NCBI GenBank assembly: GCA_964402035.1
Contig: CAYOAM010000003.1
Location: forward strand, 7,921-71,920
DNA from: an uncultured Candidatus Saccharibacteria bacterium
GTDB taxonomy: Bacteria; Patescibacteriota; Minisyncoccia; Phycocordibacterales; UBA918
Direction: 5' to 3'
Length of the DNA stretch: 64,000 bases
This document shows positions 12,970 through 57,179 of this stretch, piece by piece. The position numbers and the translations under genes were made by a program. The stretch's first letter is position 1. Each line of letters starts with the position of its first letter. The notes under the pieces are model-generated. The model did no database searches, was not told the DNA's origin, and worked only from the letters and a program-made list of their open reading frames with translations.

Positions 12970-13028
12970 GTGTAGAGTATACCGTGATCGCAGACTACGT
13001 ACAGATCTTCAAAGGGACAAAAATCCGT

Positions 13029-13045
13029 CCAAGGCCGGACCTTGG
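13029..13045. repeat. 17-bp palindromic repeat copy A (CCAAGGCCGGACCTTGG), inverted relative to copies B and C
   Basis: Read directly from the sequence. It is the reverse complement of the copies at 13093 and 13787. Confidence 0.9.
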
Positions 13046-13092
13046 TATGGATATTAAGAGATATCGTCATGTATATAAAATAGAGTGAACAT

Positions 13093-13109
13093 CCAAGGTC
13101 CGGCCTTGG
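13093..13109. repeat. 17-bp palindromic repeat copy B (CCAAGGTCCGGCCTTGG)
   Basis: Read directly from the sequence. Confidence 0.9.
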
Positions 13110-13189
13110 ACAAGATTGTTATATTTTTACTACCAAGGGCAGCCCTTAGTAGAAGAGGCCTGTATAAAAACAACAAATGCCCCAGTATC

Positions 13190-13660
13190 AAATGATAGCG
13201 GGGACAGGCTCCGAAAAAATTAATTCAAATAAAGAACTAGGTGAAGTGGGTCTGCAGTGTCCCGGGGGACACTGCAGACCTCACCCATTCTCCGCGAGTC
13301 AACATCTGACTAGACTCGTCGCGGAGTACTCATCCGGGCAGGTTGGGTTGAGATACCCGGATGTCTTCTCTGACCACGGCGAGATATGCTATCCCGCCAC
13401 TAGGTCAGCGATCGCCGCGCCCGTTGTTCAGGCCGCGGTCGAGGTCGAGCCGCCAGAGTTGGCGCCGCCACCGAGGTTGAGGTTGCCGATCAAAAACAAA
13501 AGCTCCATTTCACGGCCGGTGGTACTTCGAAACACTTTCGCCATGGAATTCCCCATGAGTTTGGAATGCTGTGCGTGCAGCTATTCCACCGAAAAGACCC
13601 CGTCAGTCACCGTCGCTTCTGCGGCGGTAACCCTGGATCTGTGAAGTATCATAGCACACT
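13190..13660. ncRNA. Candidate structured non-coding RNA or structured element (GC-rich, multiple stable hairpins), identity unknown
   Basis: The only ORF here (13177-13644) is low-complexity and non-protein-like. Consecutive perfect or near-perfect hairpins are present. These include ggtctgcagtgtccc/gggacactgcagacc at 13249-13280 and ctccgcga…tcgcggag and catccggg…cccggatg at ~13288-13362. GC content is far above the flanking DNA. Confidence 0.3.
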
Positions 13661-13786
13661 CCATTTTTTTGTCAAGTATTTTGCAAGAACTTTTAGTAGT
13701 TGCAACATAAAACCTATATTTTGAGCCATATTATATAAAAACCTAAGAGGCTTACTATGCTATGACCATGGCTGCCCTATAGTAAT

Positions 13787-13803
13787 CCAAGGTCCGGCCT
13801 TGG
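13787..13803. repeat. 17-bp palindromic repeat copy C (CCAAGGTCCGGCCTTGG, extended palindrome aatCCAAGG…CCTTGGatt)
   Basis: Read directly from the sequence. It is a direct repeat of copy B, and B and C bracket about 690 bp of GC-rich non-coding DNA. Confidence 0.9.
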
Positions 13804-13837
13804 ATTAGATGTCTACATAAAAATTATTTTCTTCTTC

Positions 13838-14566: not shown

Positions 14567-14614
14567 GTGTCTATTCTATCATCTCGAAAAGATCATCATA
14601 ATACAGCGCGGTAA

Positions 14615-14778
14615 GGTGACCTTGGTATGGCAAAATGCCCTCGCACAGGAAAACGATTTGTTTTGTATAATGCTTTTCACAAAACAAATCGTTTTTCGAG
14701 CGGAGTGGCCAAGCACTTCCTTTTCTCATAGAAAAGGAAGTGCTTGGAACACGTGGCTTTTGCCATACCAAGATCACC
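14615..14778. repeat. Nested palindromic element (about 165 bp): an outer 21-bp inverted repeat encloses two perfect internal hairpins
   Basis: The outer arms are ggtgaccttggtatggcaaaa and ttttgccataccaagatcacc. The inner palindromes are ggaaaacgatttgttttg…caaaacaaatcgtttttc (14648-14697) and ccaagcacttccttttctc…gaaaaggaagtgcttgg (14709-14747). Confidence 0.85.
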
Positions 14779-14800
14779 GAAACTTCATAGGCAGTTCTTT

Positions 14801-15970
14801 TTATAGGGAACCGCCCCGGATATCGACTAGGGTTTGCGAATAGGCGGACAAGCAGTGCTGGGTAAAATCAATACGCTGTGTGAGATCTGCTATATCTGAT
14901 CCCGTAAGAAAACCACCGATCGCCTTTTTTGGTTCAGCGAGCTTTAAGAATCGCCCACCTTTTGTATCAATCACGTATCGATAGAGGTTATTGCTCCCAA
15001 TCTGGAGCCACGACACTTGGGCGATCATGCTATCAATCGTCCCAAGCACAAGTGGTTTTAAAACTTGAGTTTCGTGATTTTCCAAAACACTATACGCACT
15101 TGCGAGTCCCTCTATATAGGGGCAGCGATTGCGCGTCGAGGCTGCATACCGCTTGTTATCAAGGAGTCGCCATGCTGTGTAACGGTCAACATACGAAACG
15201 TAGGCTGGCTGCGGTCGTGTCCTTTCCAAATCTTTGATCGCAGCCATGACCCAAAGATACAGTGGTGCATCAAAAAGCGTGTCGTTATTTAAATACGAGA
15301 ATGTTGTATCAACCATAGTTTTCACTTCAGTGCTCGGTGCATATTGGTCATACCGCACCAATGCTAAAAATGCTTCACCATTTGAAAACGAAGACTCGTC
15401 ATCCTTTTGTTTTTTGCGAGAAGGATAATAGTAGTACCTAAAACCGACATCATCCTTTTTCATTGTCATAATGTACGCCATATAGTCTAAGAGAAGTGGC
15501 TCGTACTTTTTTTTGAGATCGGGATATTCGGTCAAGGTGTTTATGACGCCAATAGCAGCAAGCGCCGTCGCACCTAACTTGCACGAAAAATCCTTCCCCT
15601 CTTTGATACAGCGAAACTCTTGACCAGCATACGAACCTGGGGCAGAAAGTGTTTCGAAGTATCCGATAGACCGCACCAGTTCTTTTTTAAAGTTATACGT
15701 ATTTCCACGATCAAGACGTTCAATTTCTGAAAGTTCAAACAGTGCTCCTGTCTGACGTACGATATTGTCATCATCGCGGTACACGCCTTCGTACGGCAGA
15801 TATTCATAGCGAAAATGCCCATTTTTCTCTTGTGAAGCGGCAAGCCAGAGTGCGCCACCTTTAACACTCTCTCTAAGTGCAGTATCAGAAAGCTTGGCCT
15901 CTGCATGCACCCCAAGCGGTGAAAAAATAAATATTGCTACCAGCAATAATGTGAGGGATTTGTACATCAA
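14801..15970 (-). CDS. Secreted hypothetical protein (possible alpha/alpha-toroid fold)
   Basis: Signal peptide present. One QxxNGxF-type motif reminiscent of prenyltransferase/cyclase repeats was seen. The fold assignment is not secure. Confidence 0.45.
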   Translation of the reverse strand: MMYKSLTLLLVAIFIFSPLGVHAEAKLSDTALRESVKGGALWLAASQEKNGHFRYEYLPYEGVYRDDDNIVRQTGALFELSEIERLDRGNTYNFKKELVRSIGYFETLSAPGSYAGQEFRCIKEGKDFSCKLGATALAAIGVINTLTEYPDLKKKYEPLLLDYMAYIMTMKKDDVGFRYYYYPSRKKQKDDESSFSNGEAFLALVRYDQYAPSTEVKTMVDTTFSYLNNDTLFDAPLYLWVMAAIKDLERTRPQPAYVSYVDRYTAWRLLDNKRYAASTRNRCPYIEGLASAYSVLENHETQVLKPLVLGTIDSMIAQVSWLQIGSNNLYRYVIDTKGGRFLKLAEPKKAIGGFLTGSDIADLTQRIDFTQHCLSAYSQTLVDIRGGSL

Positions 15971-15984
15971 GAGAGTATAGCAAA

Positions 15985-16749
15985 CTATACCTTGAGCGCA
16001 TCACCATGCCCCCTACTCCACGCATGAAAAGCTACTGCCGCCGATACCGATACGTTGAGTGATTCACAGCGTGGATGCATCGGAATAGAGAGAAGCACAT
16101 CGCACACCTCACGAGTTTTTTCTCGAAGTCCATCGCCTTCATTGCCCACGATAAATACCGTAGGGCGATCAAATACCTCGGTATCAATCGAACCCGTGGC
16201 TTCTCCCGCAAGACCATATATCCAAAAATCTTTTTCCTTGAGCTTGCGTGCAGTCGTGTTCACATTGCCCACCGACACCAATGGTATCTTGAATGCCATA
16301 CCTGCAGATACTTTGATCACCGCAGCAGTTACCTGTGCTTGATTGTGTTCAGGAATAAGTACTCCTGCGAGACCAAATCCGGCTGCCGACCGAATAATTG
16401 CACCCACATTGTGCGGATCTTGAATCTCACCAAGTAGGACGAGGCACGTATTTTCATTCACTTCGAGAGTCGATATAAATTGGTCATACGAAAGCACCAG
16501 TTTTGAGATGTCGAGCACACCAACCACACCCTGATGTACATTGTCTTCATCTATTTCGCCACGCAACTTTGAGGGCACGAGTTCTGAAACACGTATCTTT
16601 GCACCACTTAAAATATCGCGAAGTTCTGTGTCCTTTCTTGAAGATGCTAGAAAAACCTCTTTGAGCATCTTTTGTGGTGCAGCAAGTGCCTCGAGGACTG
16701 CATGCTTTCCATATATATAAATAAATGGGTTATCCATAGTTGCGAGCAT
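15985..16749 (-). CDS. rlmB: 23S rRNA (Gm2251) 2'-O-methyltransferase, SpoU/TrmH family (RlmB-like)
   Basis: N-terminal KH/L30e-like region (IYGKHAVLEAL) and SpoU motifs (GEIQDPHNVGAIIRSAAGFG…IVGNEGDGL…IPMHPRCESLNVSVS). The start was taken at the internal Met to avoid an overlap with the divergent gene. Confidence 0.8.
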   Translation of the reverse strand: MLATMDNPFIYIYGKHAVLEALAAPQKMLKEVFLASSRKDTELRDILSGAKIRVSELVPSKLRGEIDEDNVHQGVVGVLDISKLVLSYDQFISTLEVNENTCLVLLGEIQDPHNVGAIIRSAAGFGLAGVLIPEHNQAQVTAAVIKVSAGMAFKIPLVSVGNVNTTARKLKEKDFWIYGLAGEATGSIDTEVFDRPTVFIVGNEGDGLREKTREVCDVLLSIPMHPRCESLNVSVSAAVAFHAWSRGHGDALKV

Positions 16750-29242: not shown

Positions 29243-32200
29243 CTAAAAAGTGGCAGTGACTGTGTAGGTAATCACCGAAGTATAATTCCCCGCCTCCGTC
29301 ATACTCTCTATATTCCCAAGATAATATGCATCATAGATCGTGGCTGTTCCATCACCATCACCGGTCCCAATCTCATCGGGGAACGAAGACGTCGCAAAAG
29401 CAAAGGTAGCTGCACTGTATGGTGGTGTCGAGAGCCCTGTCCCAGAAATGACATTGAGCCGCACGCCAAATTGCTCCGTCCCAGGGCTTGATATGGTGGC
29501 TGTTTCGCCAATAGGATTTATGGTAGCTATATCGTAGGTCAAGGTACTGCCATTTATTGACATGCGGTACCCACCCAGTGCATTGGTGACCACAGAAATG
29601 CTATGCGCTGGCTCACTCGGAGACGTTGTGCCAAGGATATCCCCCGTTGCGTAGCGTGCTTCGAGCGCTGAAAGAGTGCCAAAACCGACGGTATTATCGG
29701 ATATGCTCATAGTTATGTAGTTTTCAGGTTCTTTCTCAATCCACCGCACACTAACCATCGCAAAATCCCAGTCACGTCCCACTCCCCCAACCACGTTCGT
29801 TGAGACTGAGGTACGCAAACGCAAGTTCATCAAGTTGTTTTGGGTATCCACAAAGTCGTCTGCTGATTCTTGCTGCTCTGCGACACGCCACGTATCAAAC
29901 CAGCTGTACGATGTTGCGGCATTGGTATCGGTGCCCGGTGTGTTGATCCAGCCTGAACCAACCTCTTCACCTCCAAGACCTGAGTTGCCGGCATAGTCTT
30001 TCATCTGTACGTCATTGGTGAGTGACGCAATATTGGATCGATGCTTCACCGCATAGTGAATACCGGTAATAGAAGTCGAGGACGCCACCGTCATGGGAAA
30101 AGAGAGATTTTGCGAGAACGCATACTCGGCATTCACCGTATCGTCGTCATTGTCTTGTGGGTAGTGGTCGACGGGATATTCGATCGCTGTCGTTGCATTC
30201 CACGTTGAGGTCAACGTGGTGCCCGTGATCGCTTCAGCGGTACTGCGAGTTCTTGTACACTCAGATGCAGTACCACTTCCCCATGATATTTCGCAGAGTG
30301 CTGAATCAGTATTGACGGAACCCACCATCATATAGATGCGATCAAACTGAAGGTTCGCGAGTGCCGCAGGACCGTTGGTGGTAAAGCCCACGCGGACTTC
30401 ACCGGTTGGTGAGATGTAGTCATCAAAGACAAAGCCGGGTATCAAGGTGTCGTTGAAACTGAACGCAAGTTCGATATCAGTGGTACACGCTGAGGCGAAG
30501 ACCGTCGATGACGCTGCTGTCCACACACTGTTTTGAAAATCCCAAAGCGAAATGGAGAAACTTAATCCCGTATTGTTTTTGCACACCTCGGGCTGCACCA
30601 AAAAGGTGTTCATACCCGCAAGCGTCTTCACGTTGGTGAATGAGAAGTAGAAACTGATGGGGGTTGAGGTCGCAGCCATATACACAGTGAATTTGTTGCC
30701 ATCAGATCCAGTGAGTGTCGTACCGATAGCGCCCACGAGGTCTGAGATGAAGTTTGAACTTGTTGCGGCGGTCGTCGTCGCGAAGCCTGATGGTTCATAT
30801 ATGGGATCAATGGCAACTTCGAGCTGCGCAAAATCGGTTTGATGTGCAGTGACCGAATTCACGGTTGAGTAGGTGCGCACAATGACGCGCTTGCTTGATG
30901 TGGTTGAAGCGAAGTTTGAGAGTGGTGTACTAATGACCGTACCGGGAGTCACGGTGCGGGTGGAAAAATAGCCATTGTATATTTCATACGTGCGCTGGGT
31001 ATCGGAGGTGTTGGTGTGATTCGTGCGTCGTGGTTGGAGTGTGCGCCACCCACCACCGGTACATTCACTATCAGCAGCATTATCAACGCCGGTGCTTGAG
31101 ACCCAATCACAGATCTGATGGGTGTATGCATCACCGGTCGTAATGTTGGTGTCTTCAAGTGTGATGAGCATTTTGTTTGCGCCATAGAGGTTGACGCTAT
31201 CAAAATAGATTTGCTTGTCCAAGCCTGAGGTGGTGCGAGTTGCCGTCCAATAGTTGCCGTCGTTCCCCAAGGTCGCTCGCCACGAGTCGAGGTGGTTTAA
31301 GTTGGTCGAGGTCGCAACACCGACGATGAGGGCGCCACCGGTGGGGGCGTATTGGGAAGTCTCGGTTACACGGCGTGGTTCATCAATCCACCGCACACTA
31401 ACCATCGCAAAATCCCAGTCACGTCCCACTCCCCCAACCACGTTCGTTGAGACTGAGGTACGCAAACGCAAGTTCATCAAGTTGTTTTGGGTATCCACAA
31501 AGTCGTCTGCTGATTCTTGCTGCTCTGCGACACGCCACGTATCAAACCAGCTGTACGATGTTGCGGCATTGGTATCGGTGCCCGGTGTGTTGATCCAGCC
31601 TGAACCAACCTCTTCACCTCCAAGACCTGAGTTGCCGGCATAGTCTTTCATCTGTACGTCATTGGTGAGTGACGCAATATTGGATCGATGCTTCACCGCA
31701 TAGTGAATACCGGTAATAGAAGTCGAGGACGCCACCGTCATGGGAAAAGAGAGATTTTGCGAGAACGCATACTCGGCATTCACCGTATCGTCGTCATTGT
31801 CTTGTGGGTAGTGGTCGACGGGATATTCGATCGCTGTCGTTGCATTCCACGTTGAGGTCAACGTGGTGCCCGTGATCGCTTCAGCGGTACTGCGAGTTCT
31901 TGTACACTCAGATGCAGTACCACTTCCCCATGATATTTCGCAGAGTGCTGAATCAGTATTGACGGAACCCACCATCATATAGATGCGATCAAACTGAAGG
32001 TTCGCGAGTGCCGCAGGACCGTTGGTGGTAAAGCCCACGCGGACTTCACCGGTTGGTGAGATGTAGTCATCAAAGACAAAGCCGGGTATCAAGGTGTCGT
32101 TGAAACTGAACGCAAGTTCGATATCAGTGGTACACGCTGAGGCGAAGACCGTCGATGACGCTGCTGTCCACACACTGTTTTGAAAATCCCAAAGCGAAAT

Positions 32201-56930: not shown

Positions 56931-57108
56931 TTTTGTAGTCTAGTTTTTTGCTGCCGCTCAGGGACTCGATTCCATACAGAATCGGTACAGGTTGTCGATA
57001 TTTTAATGCACTTTGTTTTTAAAATATCTGGCAACCTTTTCGAGTCCGCACAACGCTCGCCATGGGCGAGCTGCGCCTGATCGGCAGCTTCCTCATTCCA
57101 TTCGTCAG

Positions 57109-57179
57109 CTGCCGATCAGGGACTCGAACCCCAATATTCACCTCCAGAGGGTGACGTCCTACCATTAGACGAATCGGCA
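57109..57179 (-). tRNA. tRNA-Gln (anticodon CUG)
   Basis: Manual fold of the reverse complement. The acceptor pairs UGCCGAU/AUCGGCA, with U1:A72 as in E. coli tRNA-Gln. D-arm GUCU-AAUGGUA-GGAC. Anticodon arm UCACC-CUCUGGA-GGUGA. T-arm GGGG-UUCGAGU-CCCU. Discriminator G. CCA is not encoded. Confidence 0.75.

Follow-up and report, generated by a model that had tools for sequence, protein, structure and literature searches.

We analysed a stretch of 64,000 nt (the window) from an uncultured Candidatus Saccharibacteria bacterium (contig CAYOAM010000003.1 of assembly GCA_964402035.1, positions 7,921 to 71,920 of the forward strand), in which an exonuclease gene is separated from a GH1-EamA-GH42 operon by a GC-rich, hairpin-dense island. 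Three copies of a 17-nt palindrome, CCAAGGTCCGGCCTTGG, lie at the borders of this island. We interpret them as repetitive extragenic palindromes (REPs) of a transposase family of the candidate phyla radiation (CPR), and the roughly 680 bp enclosed between copies 2 and 3 as an insert. The repeats found at the borders, in window coordinates, are the following.

13022 to 13117, no strand assigned: inverted doublet of copies 1 and 2, resembling a REP doublet forming a hairpin (REPIN) or a bacterial interspersed mosaic element (BIME); folds as one long single-stranded DNA (ssDNA) hairpin of -29.3 kcal/mol, z -11
13027 to 13045, minus strand: REP copy 1 (core 13029-13045), reading CCAAGGTCCGGCCTTGG and then ACGGATTTTT on the minus strand
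13091 to 13116, plus strand: REP copy 2 (core 13093-13109), the left half of a 26-nt direct repeat that brackets the insert
13128 to 13152, plus strand: degenerate fourth REP-like hairpin, with CAAGGGCAGCCCTTA at 13134-13148
13769 to 13783, plus strand: GGCTGCCCTATAGTA, the right arm of an inner inverted repeat that is imperfect; it immediately adjoins REP copy 3
13783 to 13810, plus strand: REP copy 3 (core 13787-13803), with a perfect 10-bp stem TAATCCAAGG/CCTTGGATTA and forming the right half of the 26-nt direct repeat

The three exact copies, two direct and one inverted, had been described in an earlier note on this DNA, and their coordinates on both strands bear it out. Elsewhere in the 64 kb the 17-mer does not occur, even when up to three mismatches are allowed (0.04 copies expected; the count was equalled in none of 100 shuffled sequences), and the census of the window is a single cluster of three exact copies and one degenerate copy, all of them intergenic. 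The palindrome consists of a CAAGG/CCTTG stem and a 5-nt loop, the 17-nt core being of odd length through one extra T/A, and the window copies would fold as ssDNA hairpins of -6.7 to -9.0 kcal/mol. Copies 1 and 2 provide inverted 19-nt arms (13027-13045 and 13093-13111) that are 100% complementary and separated by a 47-nt linker. Around copies 2 and 3 the similarity extends to the 26-nt direct repeat (13091-13116 and 13785-13810, 92% identity, 694 bp apart), and as both copies are in plus orientation, hairpins of the same orientation are found near both ends of the insert. Copy 3 lies only 30 nt past the stop codon of the exonuclease gene. Read on the minus strand, copy 1 is a terminator-like hairpin followed by a T-run, about 60 nt 5' of the initiation codon of GH1. 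As read from the sequence, the imperfect inner inverted repeat pairs 13128-13144 (TACTAcCAAGGGCAGCC) with 13769-13783 at 15 matching bases with a 2-nt indel, and is the outer helix of the predicted folds. A 13-nt direct repeat around the entire block (12995 and 13848) was ignored, about 0.3 being expected by chance by our own estimate.

A scan for the exact 17-mer gave 75 loci in 185,579 species genomes (GTDB) and 96 in Joint Genome Institute (JGI) metagenomes. The 75 GTDB loci are close to the number expected by chance (about 70, our own estimate), and in both sets most loci are high-GC coding sequence; only low-GC or multi-copy loci were therefore used. The low-GC loci concentrate in metagenome-assembled genomes (MAGs) of the CPR, including three contigs of one Paceibacteria MAG, Saccharibacteria, Yanofskybacteria and Paceibacterota, and stems extended by at least four pairs are enriched (six against about 0.3 expected by chance, also our own estimate). 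In the low-GC JGI contigs the repeat forms inverted or tandem doublets, and CCAAGG-N5-CCTTGG hairpins cluster there at up to five per 300 nt; in other CPR contigs there are 2-5 copies per 1-3 kb. A protein gene of L102/L114 is preceded by a REP doublet and followed by a single REP. The repeat also enters genes, being translated in frame in intact TopA, MnmA, GatB, GrpE, GH1, a glycosyltransferase and a MiaB-like radical-SAM enzyme. In the GH1 of a Yanofskybacteria MAG (L049) it falls within a 14-aa insertion, VPQSLQGPALGTSH, that is missing from four orthologues including the GH1 of the window.

The in-frame loci comprise L095, L129 and L120/L072 (TopA), L088/L034/L121 (MnmA), L176 (GatB), L020 (GrpE) and L049 (GH1), together with L142 and L152. 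Tandem in-frame copies are sometimes read in two different frames (PKAGPW...SQGRTLG), and in orthologous TopA genes the hairpin is present with inverted loops (KAGPW vs KVRPW). A Candidatus Thioglobus MAG (L062, positions 1564-1704 and 2811-2990) contains a repeated intergenic module with the 17-mer and a second palindrome, GGAAGGCAAGGCCTTCC, the central bases of the palindromes being inverted between both copies of the module.

The most informative of these loci contain a transposase gene. In L104, CGTCACCAAGGTCCGGCCTTGGTGACG is found just upstream of a 235-aa open reading frame (ORF), a one-mismatch copy is in frame inside it, and downstream there is an apparently nested pair, one hairpin being placed in the other's loop. 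This arrangement is repeated in L188 with CCAAGGTCCGGCCTTG, which in all copies is the window 17-mer core with one mismatch at the 3' end. In the Kaiserbacteria contigs L189/L190 the variant is GGCAAGGCAAGGCCTTGCC and in L191 it is ATCAAGGCC(C/G)GGCCTTGA, each being found on both sides of, and within, that genome's gene for a REP-associated tyrosine transposase (RAYT). At L188, L189/L190 and L191 one copy closely precedes the gene, another is in frame within it at one conserved site, and a further one is at or just after the stop codon. Every RAYT gene examined (L104, L188, L189/L190 and L191) has an in-frame internal copy of its own flanking REP at one conserved position, and translating CAAGG-N5-CCTTG yields the motif QG[PKR]AL, which is conserved in these proteins. 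With three co-varying variants at four independent loci, the hairpins and this family of transposases are tied to each other. From copy to copy, the orientation of the loop can be inverted.

The L104 ORF matches Pfam Y1_Tnp with 31.1 bits (cut-off 23), as do all 31 tested homologues, and the HUH histidines H87 and H89 (His-x-His) and the catalytic-type tyrosine Y147 are invariant. Against the NCBIfam model REP_Tyr_transpos it scored 33 bits, below the cut-off of 80, so that this transposase is a distant member of the family. Its AlphaFold model (pLDDT 87.6) had PDB 4ER8, the E. coli RAYT (TnpA-REP) bound to a REP hairpin, as the sole match below an E value of 0.001 (E 9.8e-5, TM 0.65 on target), ahead of the IS608 and ISDra2 transposases. 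A total of 496 homologues were retrieved, labelled in their source as transposases of Paceibacterota, Kaiserbacteria and Patescibacteria. REP-RAYT systems are recognised by stem-loop repeats, by the arrangement of these in inverted doublets and by a RAYT gene flanked by them (PMC3479197, PMC5581495); all three are found here, and the CPR repeat and its transposase therefore represent a REP-RAYT system. We can explain the palindromes with good confidence as a new, CPR-specific variant of such systems, and those of the window are very probably REPs of this RAYT family.

The DNA between the REPs was compared with the equivalent location in other genomes. By the source names of its exonuclease homologues, the organism falls within CPR/Patescibacteria, near Paceibacteria and Kaiserbacteria. 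Eight relatives have an exonuclease 73-79% identical to that of the window, and the order exonuclease-variable slot-GH1-EamA-GH42-like is kept in seven of them, the eighth contig stopping before GH1. After the exonuclease gene each has a different cargo: three unrelated genes, an IS605-type tnpB with repeat arrays, small ORFs, a DUF998 gene, a YdjM-like gene, a dehydrogenase-like gene, or a small gene with duplicated GH1 5'-end fragments. None of these eight slots holds anything resembling the island at the DNA or protein level, and the island is therefore to be seen as a lineage-specific insert in an insertion hotspot. That it is both lineage-specific and non-coding appears to us highly probable. 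The earlier note had proposed, among other options, a riboswitch-containing leader for GH1, and this is rejected: the GH1 ATG of the window, like that of four relatives without the island, is preceded at about 5-16 nt by a TATACT -10 box, which excludes such a leader, the island is missing in all eight relatives, and the copy 1 hairpin with its T-run intervenes.

Two of the occupied slots deserve description. In L010 (5715-8086) three 40-nt repeats with a spacing of 70-73 nt stand on either side of the IS605-type tnpB, the two sets being inverted relative to each other, and the block is enclosed in a large inverted duplication that comprises the exonuclease and ClpB-like genes and may be an assembly artefact. 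In the slot of L185 (5328-6100) there are two truncated copies of the 5' end of GH1 (ATGAAGA...TTTCCTGAAGG...GGGGTG), suggesting repeated insertion or recombination right at the start of GH1.

Regarding composition, the earlier note had described a GC-rich island of about 700 bp. The GC elevation is clear (0.54-0.605 in 200-nt windows at about 13200-13650 against a window mean of 0.466, z about 3.4), but the GC-rich core extends over only about 400-450 bp, with AT-rich stretches of 110-130 bp just inside the palindromes on each side. The several perfect hairpins that it had mentioned were also reduced in number. The 14-bp stem with a 4-nt loop at 13249-13280 is indeed perfect, and the only other perfect stem of at least 8 bp in the island is that of copy 3, while the remaining helices are imperfect. 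Even so, no other part of the 64 kb stands out as strongly in its folding, on either strand (GC-corrected residual z -5.9 on the minus and -4.65 on the plus strand). The following features were annotated in its interior.

13177 to 13644, plus strand: ORF of 155 aa, annotated as a gene by the public assembly and judged spurious
13215 to 13641, minus strand: predicted orphan transcript of about 410 nt (start about 13641, end about 13232), GC-rich and hairpin-dense
13244 to 13286, minus strand: terminator-like 19-bp helix (perfect 14-bp core 13249-13280), then a U-rich tail, UAGUUCUUUAUUUGAAUUAAUUUUUU
13428 to 13556, minus strand: 42-aa Gly-rich micro-ORF inside the predicted transcript, unsupported as a gene
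13648 to 13675, minus strand: predicted sigma-70-type promoter, TTGACA-16-TGcTATGAT, 11/12 matches, extended -10

No reading frame of the island is coding-like. The 155-aa ORF retrieved nothing but itself among 5.8 billion proteins and one further match only, low-complexity-looking, among 1.84 billion cluster representatives, and the public assembly's annotation of it as a gene is almost certainly spurious. The Gly-rich micro-ORF of the minus strand does exist and lacks a convincing ribosome-binding site (RBS), as the earlier note had said, but its size is larger than was given there, 42 aa at 13428-13556. It has no Shine-Dalgarno sequence of the kind found in a relative, AAGGAG, and neither it nor the other small ORFs of the island matched any Pfam or NCBIfam family, even at E values up to 10.

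On the minus strand the terminator-like helix lies about 410 nt downstream of the predicted promoter. The fold of the intervening transcript has a minimum free energy of -190.3 kcal/mol (z -6.8) with 142 pairs, 17 of them G-U, whereas the plus strand folds more weakly (-172.9, z -5.2). Promoter, terminator and the better minus-strand fold therefore suggest a coherent minus-strand transcription unit, which copy 1 and its T-run separate from the GH1 promoter. Promoter matches of at least 11/12 number three in the 64 kb, counting both strands, against about one in shuffled sequences. An orphan structured RNA from the island is thus plausible, and we suggest, tentatively, that an RNA of about 410 nt is transcribed from it.

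The earlier note had found by eye no consensus of RNase P, tmRNA or signal recognition particle (SRP) RNA, and the covariance models and ARAGORN confirmed it. It had also pointed to an Rfam search of the island, in which no family of Rfam 15 matched at the gathering score; the sole match of the window was a tRNA-Gln at 57109-57179. At E values up to 10 only sub-threshold noise from microRNA and internal ribosome entry site models appeared, falling on the REP doublet, the spurious microRNA-precursor matches being due to the folding of the doublet as one long hairpin. ARAGORN detected no tRNA or tmRNA in the island at thresholds of 100% or 90%, and only nonsense at 70-80%. A tmRNA had been considered because the micro-ORF ends like a tag (...ANSGGSTSTAA-stop), but there is no recognisable tRNA-like domain and no ARAGORN or Rfam match; RNase P, SRP, 6S, OLE, HEARO and other RNAs were likewise rejected for lack of an Rfam match. 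A new conserved large non-coding RNA (ncRNA) is not supported by any comparative evidence.

Relatives of the island were sought widely. No second copy of its interior was found in the window, in the fetched loci or in the public collections scanned; nhmmer gave no match elsewhere in the window or in the loci fetched, about 190 in number, and blastn none in 50,697 phage and 72,556 plasmid records. Degenerate patterns back-translated from the 155-aa pseudo-protein produced no confirmed match in viral and JGI metagenome contigs. A phage or plasmid origin was rejected on the blastn result and because the viral contigs had neither the palindrome nor a relative of the ORF. A remnant of the cargo genes of relatives was also discarded, as tblastn of 138 ORF fragments returned noise only. 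The 694-bp spacing of the REPs resembles the 717-776 bp of RAYT cassettes, yet a decayed RAYT gene was rejected too: at maximum sensitivity a profile hidden Markov model built from 114 RAYT homologues drew a blank in all six frames of the island (best score -2.9 bits). The island is identical in three further contigs.

The strain variants L004 and L005, from sister samples and 99.0-99.3% identical, have no substitution in the island and so give no information on constraint. Compared with the window they show two substitutions in the EamA-like gene and otherwise differ only in two dense patches, 14816-14972 and 16096-16198 (27 and 15 differences), which hit the C-terminal part of a 389-aa protein and a SpoU methylase gene and look like recombination tracts.

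Putting these data together, copies 1 and 2 form a REPIN/BIME-like doublet and copy 3 is a singleton just 3' of the exonuclease gene, and the approximately 680 bp between copies 2 and 3 are most probably an insert in the slot between that gene and the operon. The insert would most likely express a highly structured orphan RNA of about 0.4 kb from its own minus-strand promoter, and the REP doublet with its T-run may insulate GH1 from this RNA. We lean, with some reserve, towards this combination of REPs, lineage-specific insert and orphan RNA as a whole. Capture of the insert, and possibly its movement, could have taken place by recombination at its REPs, because copies 2 and 3 reproduce the geometry of the left-end and right-end hairpins of IS200/IS605 elements and because integration of REP-bearing DNA at a resident REP would leave a 26-bp direct repeat. 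This REP/RAYT-mediated step is doubtful, and mobility is something we can only infer, since the window contains no RAYT gene, the interior is not a decayed one and no second copy of it is known from anything searched. Clearly less probable again is that a CPR-distinct REP-RAYT system can bracket and move non-coding cargo and that the island is a REP-bounded cassette encoding a new class of structured RNAs of about 410 nt.

Several observations weigh against the combination that we prefer, beginning with the lack of a RAYT gene in the 64 kb and of a second copy of the interior in anything searched. The REPs are rare, with one cluster in 64 kb, unlike the classical high-copy REPs, and the 5' flanks of the window copies (AT/GT/TA-CCAAGG) are unlike the CGTCA-CCAAGG found beside RAYT genes. 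The chance probability of a promoter-like match within the 680-bp island is about 0.01, which is not negligible when further tests had been made as well. Good folding is predicted for both strands, a result that DNA-level palindromes would also give. The lack of island substitutions in L004 and L005 we also list here, although it neither supports nor contradicts constraint.

Among the alternatives, the island might be inert debris, a decaying foreign or mobile remnant in a hotspot whose hairpins are DNA-level palindromes or leftovers of terminators and whose promoter match is fortuitous. The lack of an island homologue in any search would suit such a remnant, as would the strongly negative fold z-scores on both strands and a slot that gathers unrelated cargo, even fragments of the GH1 5' end in one relative; the neighbouring intergenic region 14567-14800 is likewise made of nested perfect hairpins. 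Less easily explained as debris are a promoter, a 410-nt body and a terminator in the correct order on one strand, the 17 G-U pairs that favour the minus strand, REPs placed exactly in the two spacers outside the predicted unit and none within it, and an island unchanged in three further contigs as well as in two strain variants with differences at other places, and we consider this origin unlikely. The same evidence for a minus-strand unit (promoter, terminator and folding) would serve an ordinary chromosomal gene for a new structured ncRNA, with REPs merely accumulated in the flanking spacers, and the protein gene of L102/L114 is bracketed in the same way by an upstream doublet and a downstream single REP. 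The RNA is nevertheless missing at the syntenic site in all eight closest relatives and from every collection searched, its GC of 0.58-0.60 is foreign to a genome of 0.466, and the 26-nt direct repeat at both borders resembles an integration scar, all of which makes it improbable.

The remaining two explanations concern the function of single components. The minus-strand unit could be the mRNA of a Gly-rich peptide of 42 (or 38) aa, MGNSMAKVFRSTTGREMELLFLIGNLNLGGGANSGGSTSTAA, given that the ORF is within the predicted transcript, about 85 nt past its start, and contains a 15-nt tandem repeat encoding GGANS/GGSTS; but an RBS of the AAGGAG type, such as a relative has, was not found, Pfam and NCBIfam were blank up to an E value of 10, and about 180 nt of structured RNA would be left as 3' untranslated region, so that we regard a peptide as very improbable. 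Nor do we give much more than nominal credit to the palindromes as operators of a dimeric DNA-binding protein, either a regulator of the GH1 operon or parS-like, rather than mobile REPs. Their 6+5+6 inverted repeat is that of a typical dimer site, with two copies 64 bp apart upstream of GH1 and a third 694 bp away, yet the palindrome is missing upstream of GH1 in the relatives, flanks RAYT genes and co-varies with them, and occurs in frame in unrelated housekeeping genes and nested in itself.

Other features of the window were observed along the way. Second only to the island as a folding outlier is the intergenic region 14567-14800, which separates the gene of the 389-aa protein from that of the exonuclease. 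Its outermost stem has 21 bp (14615-14635 with 14758-14778), and inside this stem are a hairpin of 18 bp (14709-14747) and another of about 15 bp; the stems begin with CCAAG/CTTGG and ACCAAGGTCACC, reminiscent of REPs. The other GC peak of the window (0.62, at 1815-2150) is coding and unrelated to the island: it encodes an Arg/Pro/Ala/His-rich N-terminal extension of about 110 aa on RNase J, probably disordered. The segments 29736-30035 and 31383-31682 (also 30255-30285 and 31902-31932) are 100% identical and 1647 bp apart, which could indicate a recent tandem duplication or an assembly artefact. A 20-nt copy of the tRNA-Gln 3' end (56950-56969 vs 57108-57127, 19/20) is found 158 bp downstream of the tRNA gene, a signature of an att site or of the remnant of a tRNA-integrated element, in a region that is also a folding outlier.

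The identical 17-nt hairpin is common to Paceibacteria, Saccharibacteria and Yanofskybacteria. Together with the in-frame copies and the embedding in cognate transposase genes, this sharing suggests a source of small protein insertions and a route to local hypervariability in streamlined genomes. The repeat family is thus of interest for mobile DNA and for the evolution of CPR genomes, and merits a dedicated study. The value of the island itself is narrower, a candidate orphan RNA and evidence of a spurious 155-aa gene call in a public assembly.

Compared with the large structured ncRNAs (RNase P RNA, tmRNA, OLE, GOLLD, HEARO, ROOL and raiA), the island is alike in its size of about 0.4 kb, its GC-richness relative to the genome and its dense predicted structure. 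It differs in having no covariance-model match at any threshold and no homologues, and many of its helices are near-perfect local hairpins rather than part of a long-range architecture. The likeness to a miniature inverted-repeat transposable element (MITE) that the earlier note had raised is partial. The island occupies a hypervariable slot as an insert specific to its lineage, and its palindromes belong to a mobile REP family, but it is single-copy in the window and in all the collections searched. As to the ends, there is an imperfect inner inverted repeat, and what is repeated directly over 26 nt at the borders is the REP, unlike a typical target-site duplication, which is short. The dispersed copies that had been named as a sign of a simple repeat element were found for the palindrome alone, and only across other CPR genomes, not for the palindrome-flanked segment.

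The systems closest to the CPR repeat are the REP/BIME (REPIN) sequences and RAYTs (TnpA-REP) of E. coli and Pseudomonas (PMC3479197, PMC5581495, PMC3116915). Shared with them are short imperfect stem-loop palindromes, inverted doublets with a linker, the same repeat on both sides of a Y1/HUH gene, a 4ER8-like fold and co-variation with the RAYT. The CPR core is shorter than in classical REPs, 17 nt (21-31 nt with the variable stem extensions). E. coli-type REPs have a conserved 5' GTAG tetranucleotide at the foot of the hairpin (PMC3479197), unlike the CPR copies, which have AT or TA as 5' flanks in the window and CGTCA next to the RAYT genes. Further differences from the classical systems are the low copy number where it could be counted, the copies in frame inside housekeeping genes and, in every CPR RAYT gene examined, the internal in-frame REP. 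To our knowledge such an internal copy is not known for classical RAYTs, and none was found in the literature searched. REP-RAYT systems have been studied mostly in Proteobacteria, and our literature search found no paper on REPs in CPR/Patescibacteria.

Y1 transposases recognise ssDNA hairpins and cut and rejoin beside them, and IS200/IS605 elements are bounded by two hairpins of the same orientation (PMC3479197). The island, like these elements and the palindrome-associated transposable elements (PATEs), is bounded by two same-orientation hairpins, the geometry of a Y1 substrate, and an IS605-type tnpB occupies this very slot in L010. Unlike them, it has no tnpA, no tnpB, no match resembling an omega-RNA and no further copies found, and the cleavage and guide tetranucleotides of IS200/IS605 are not identifiable at the island.

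Finally, two groups of palindromic repeats resemble the CPR repeat in how they insert. The Rickettsia palindromic elements (RPEs), of 100-150 bp, insert in frame into protein genes and have no known transposase, and the very small dispersed repeats (SDRs) and HIP1 of cyanobacteria are palindromic repeats as well, the SDRs having less than 30 nt and inserting into copies of themselves. The CPR repeat is SDR-like in its self-nesting, seen in the apparently nested pair of L104, and RPE-like in its in-frame insertion, seen in the 14 aa of the GH1 of L049 relative to four orthologues, but unlike the RPEs it has an evident cognate transposase family.

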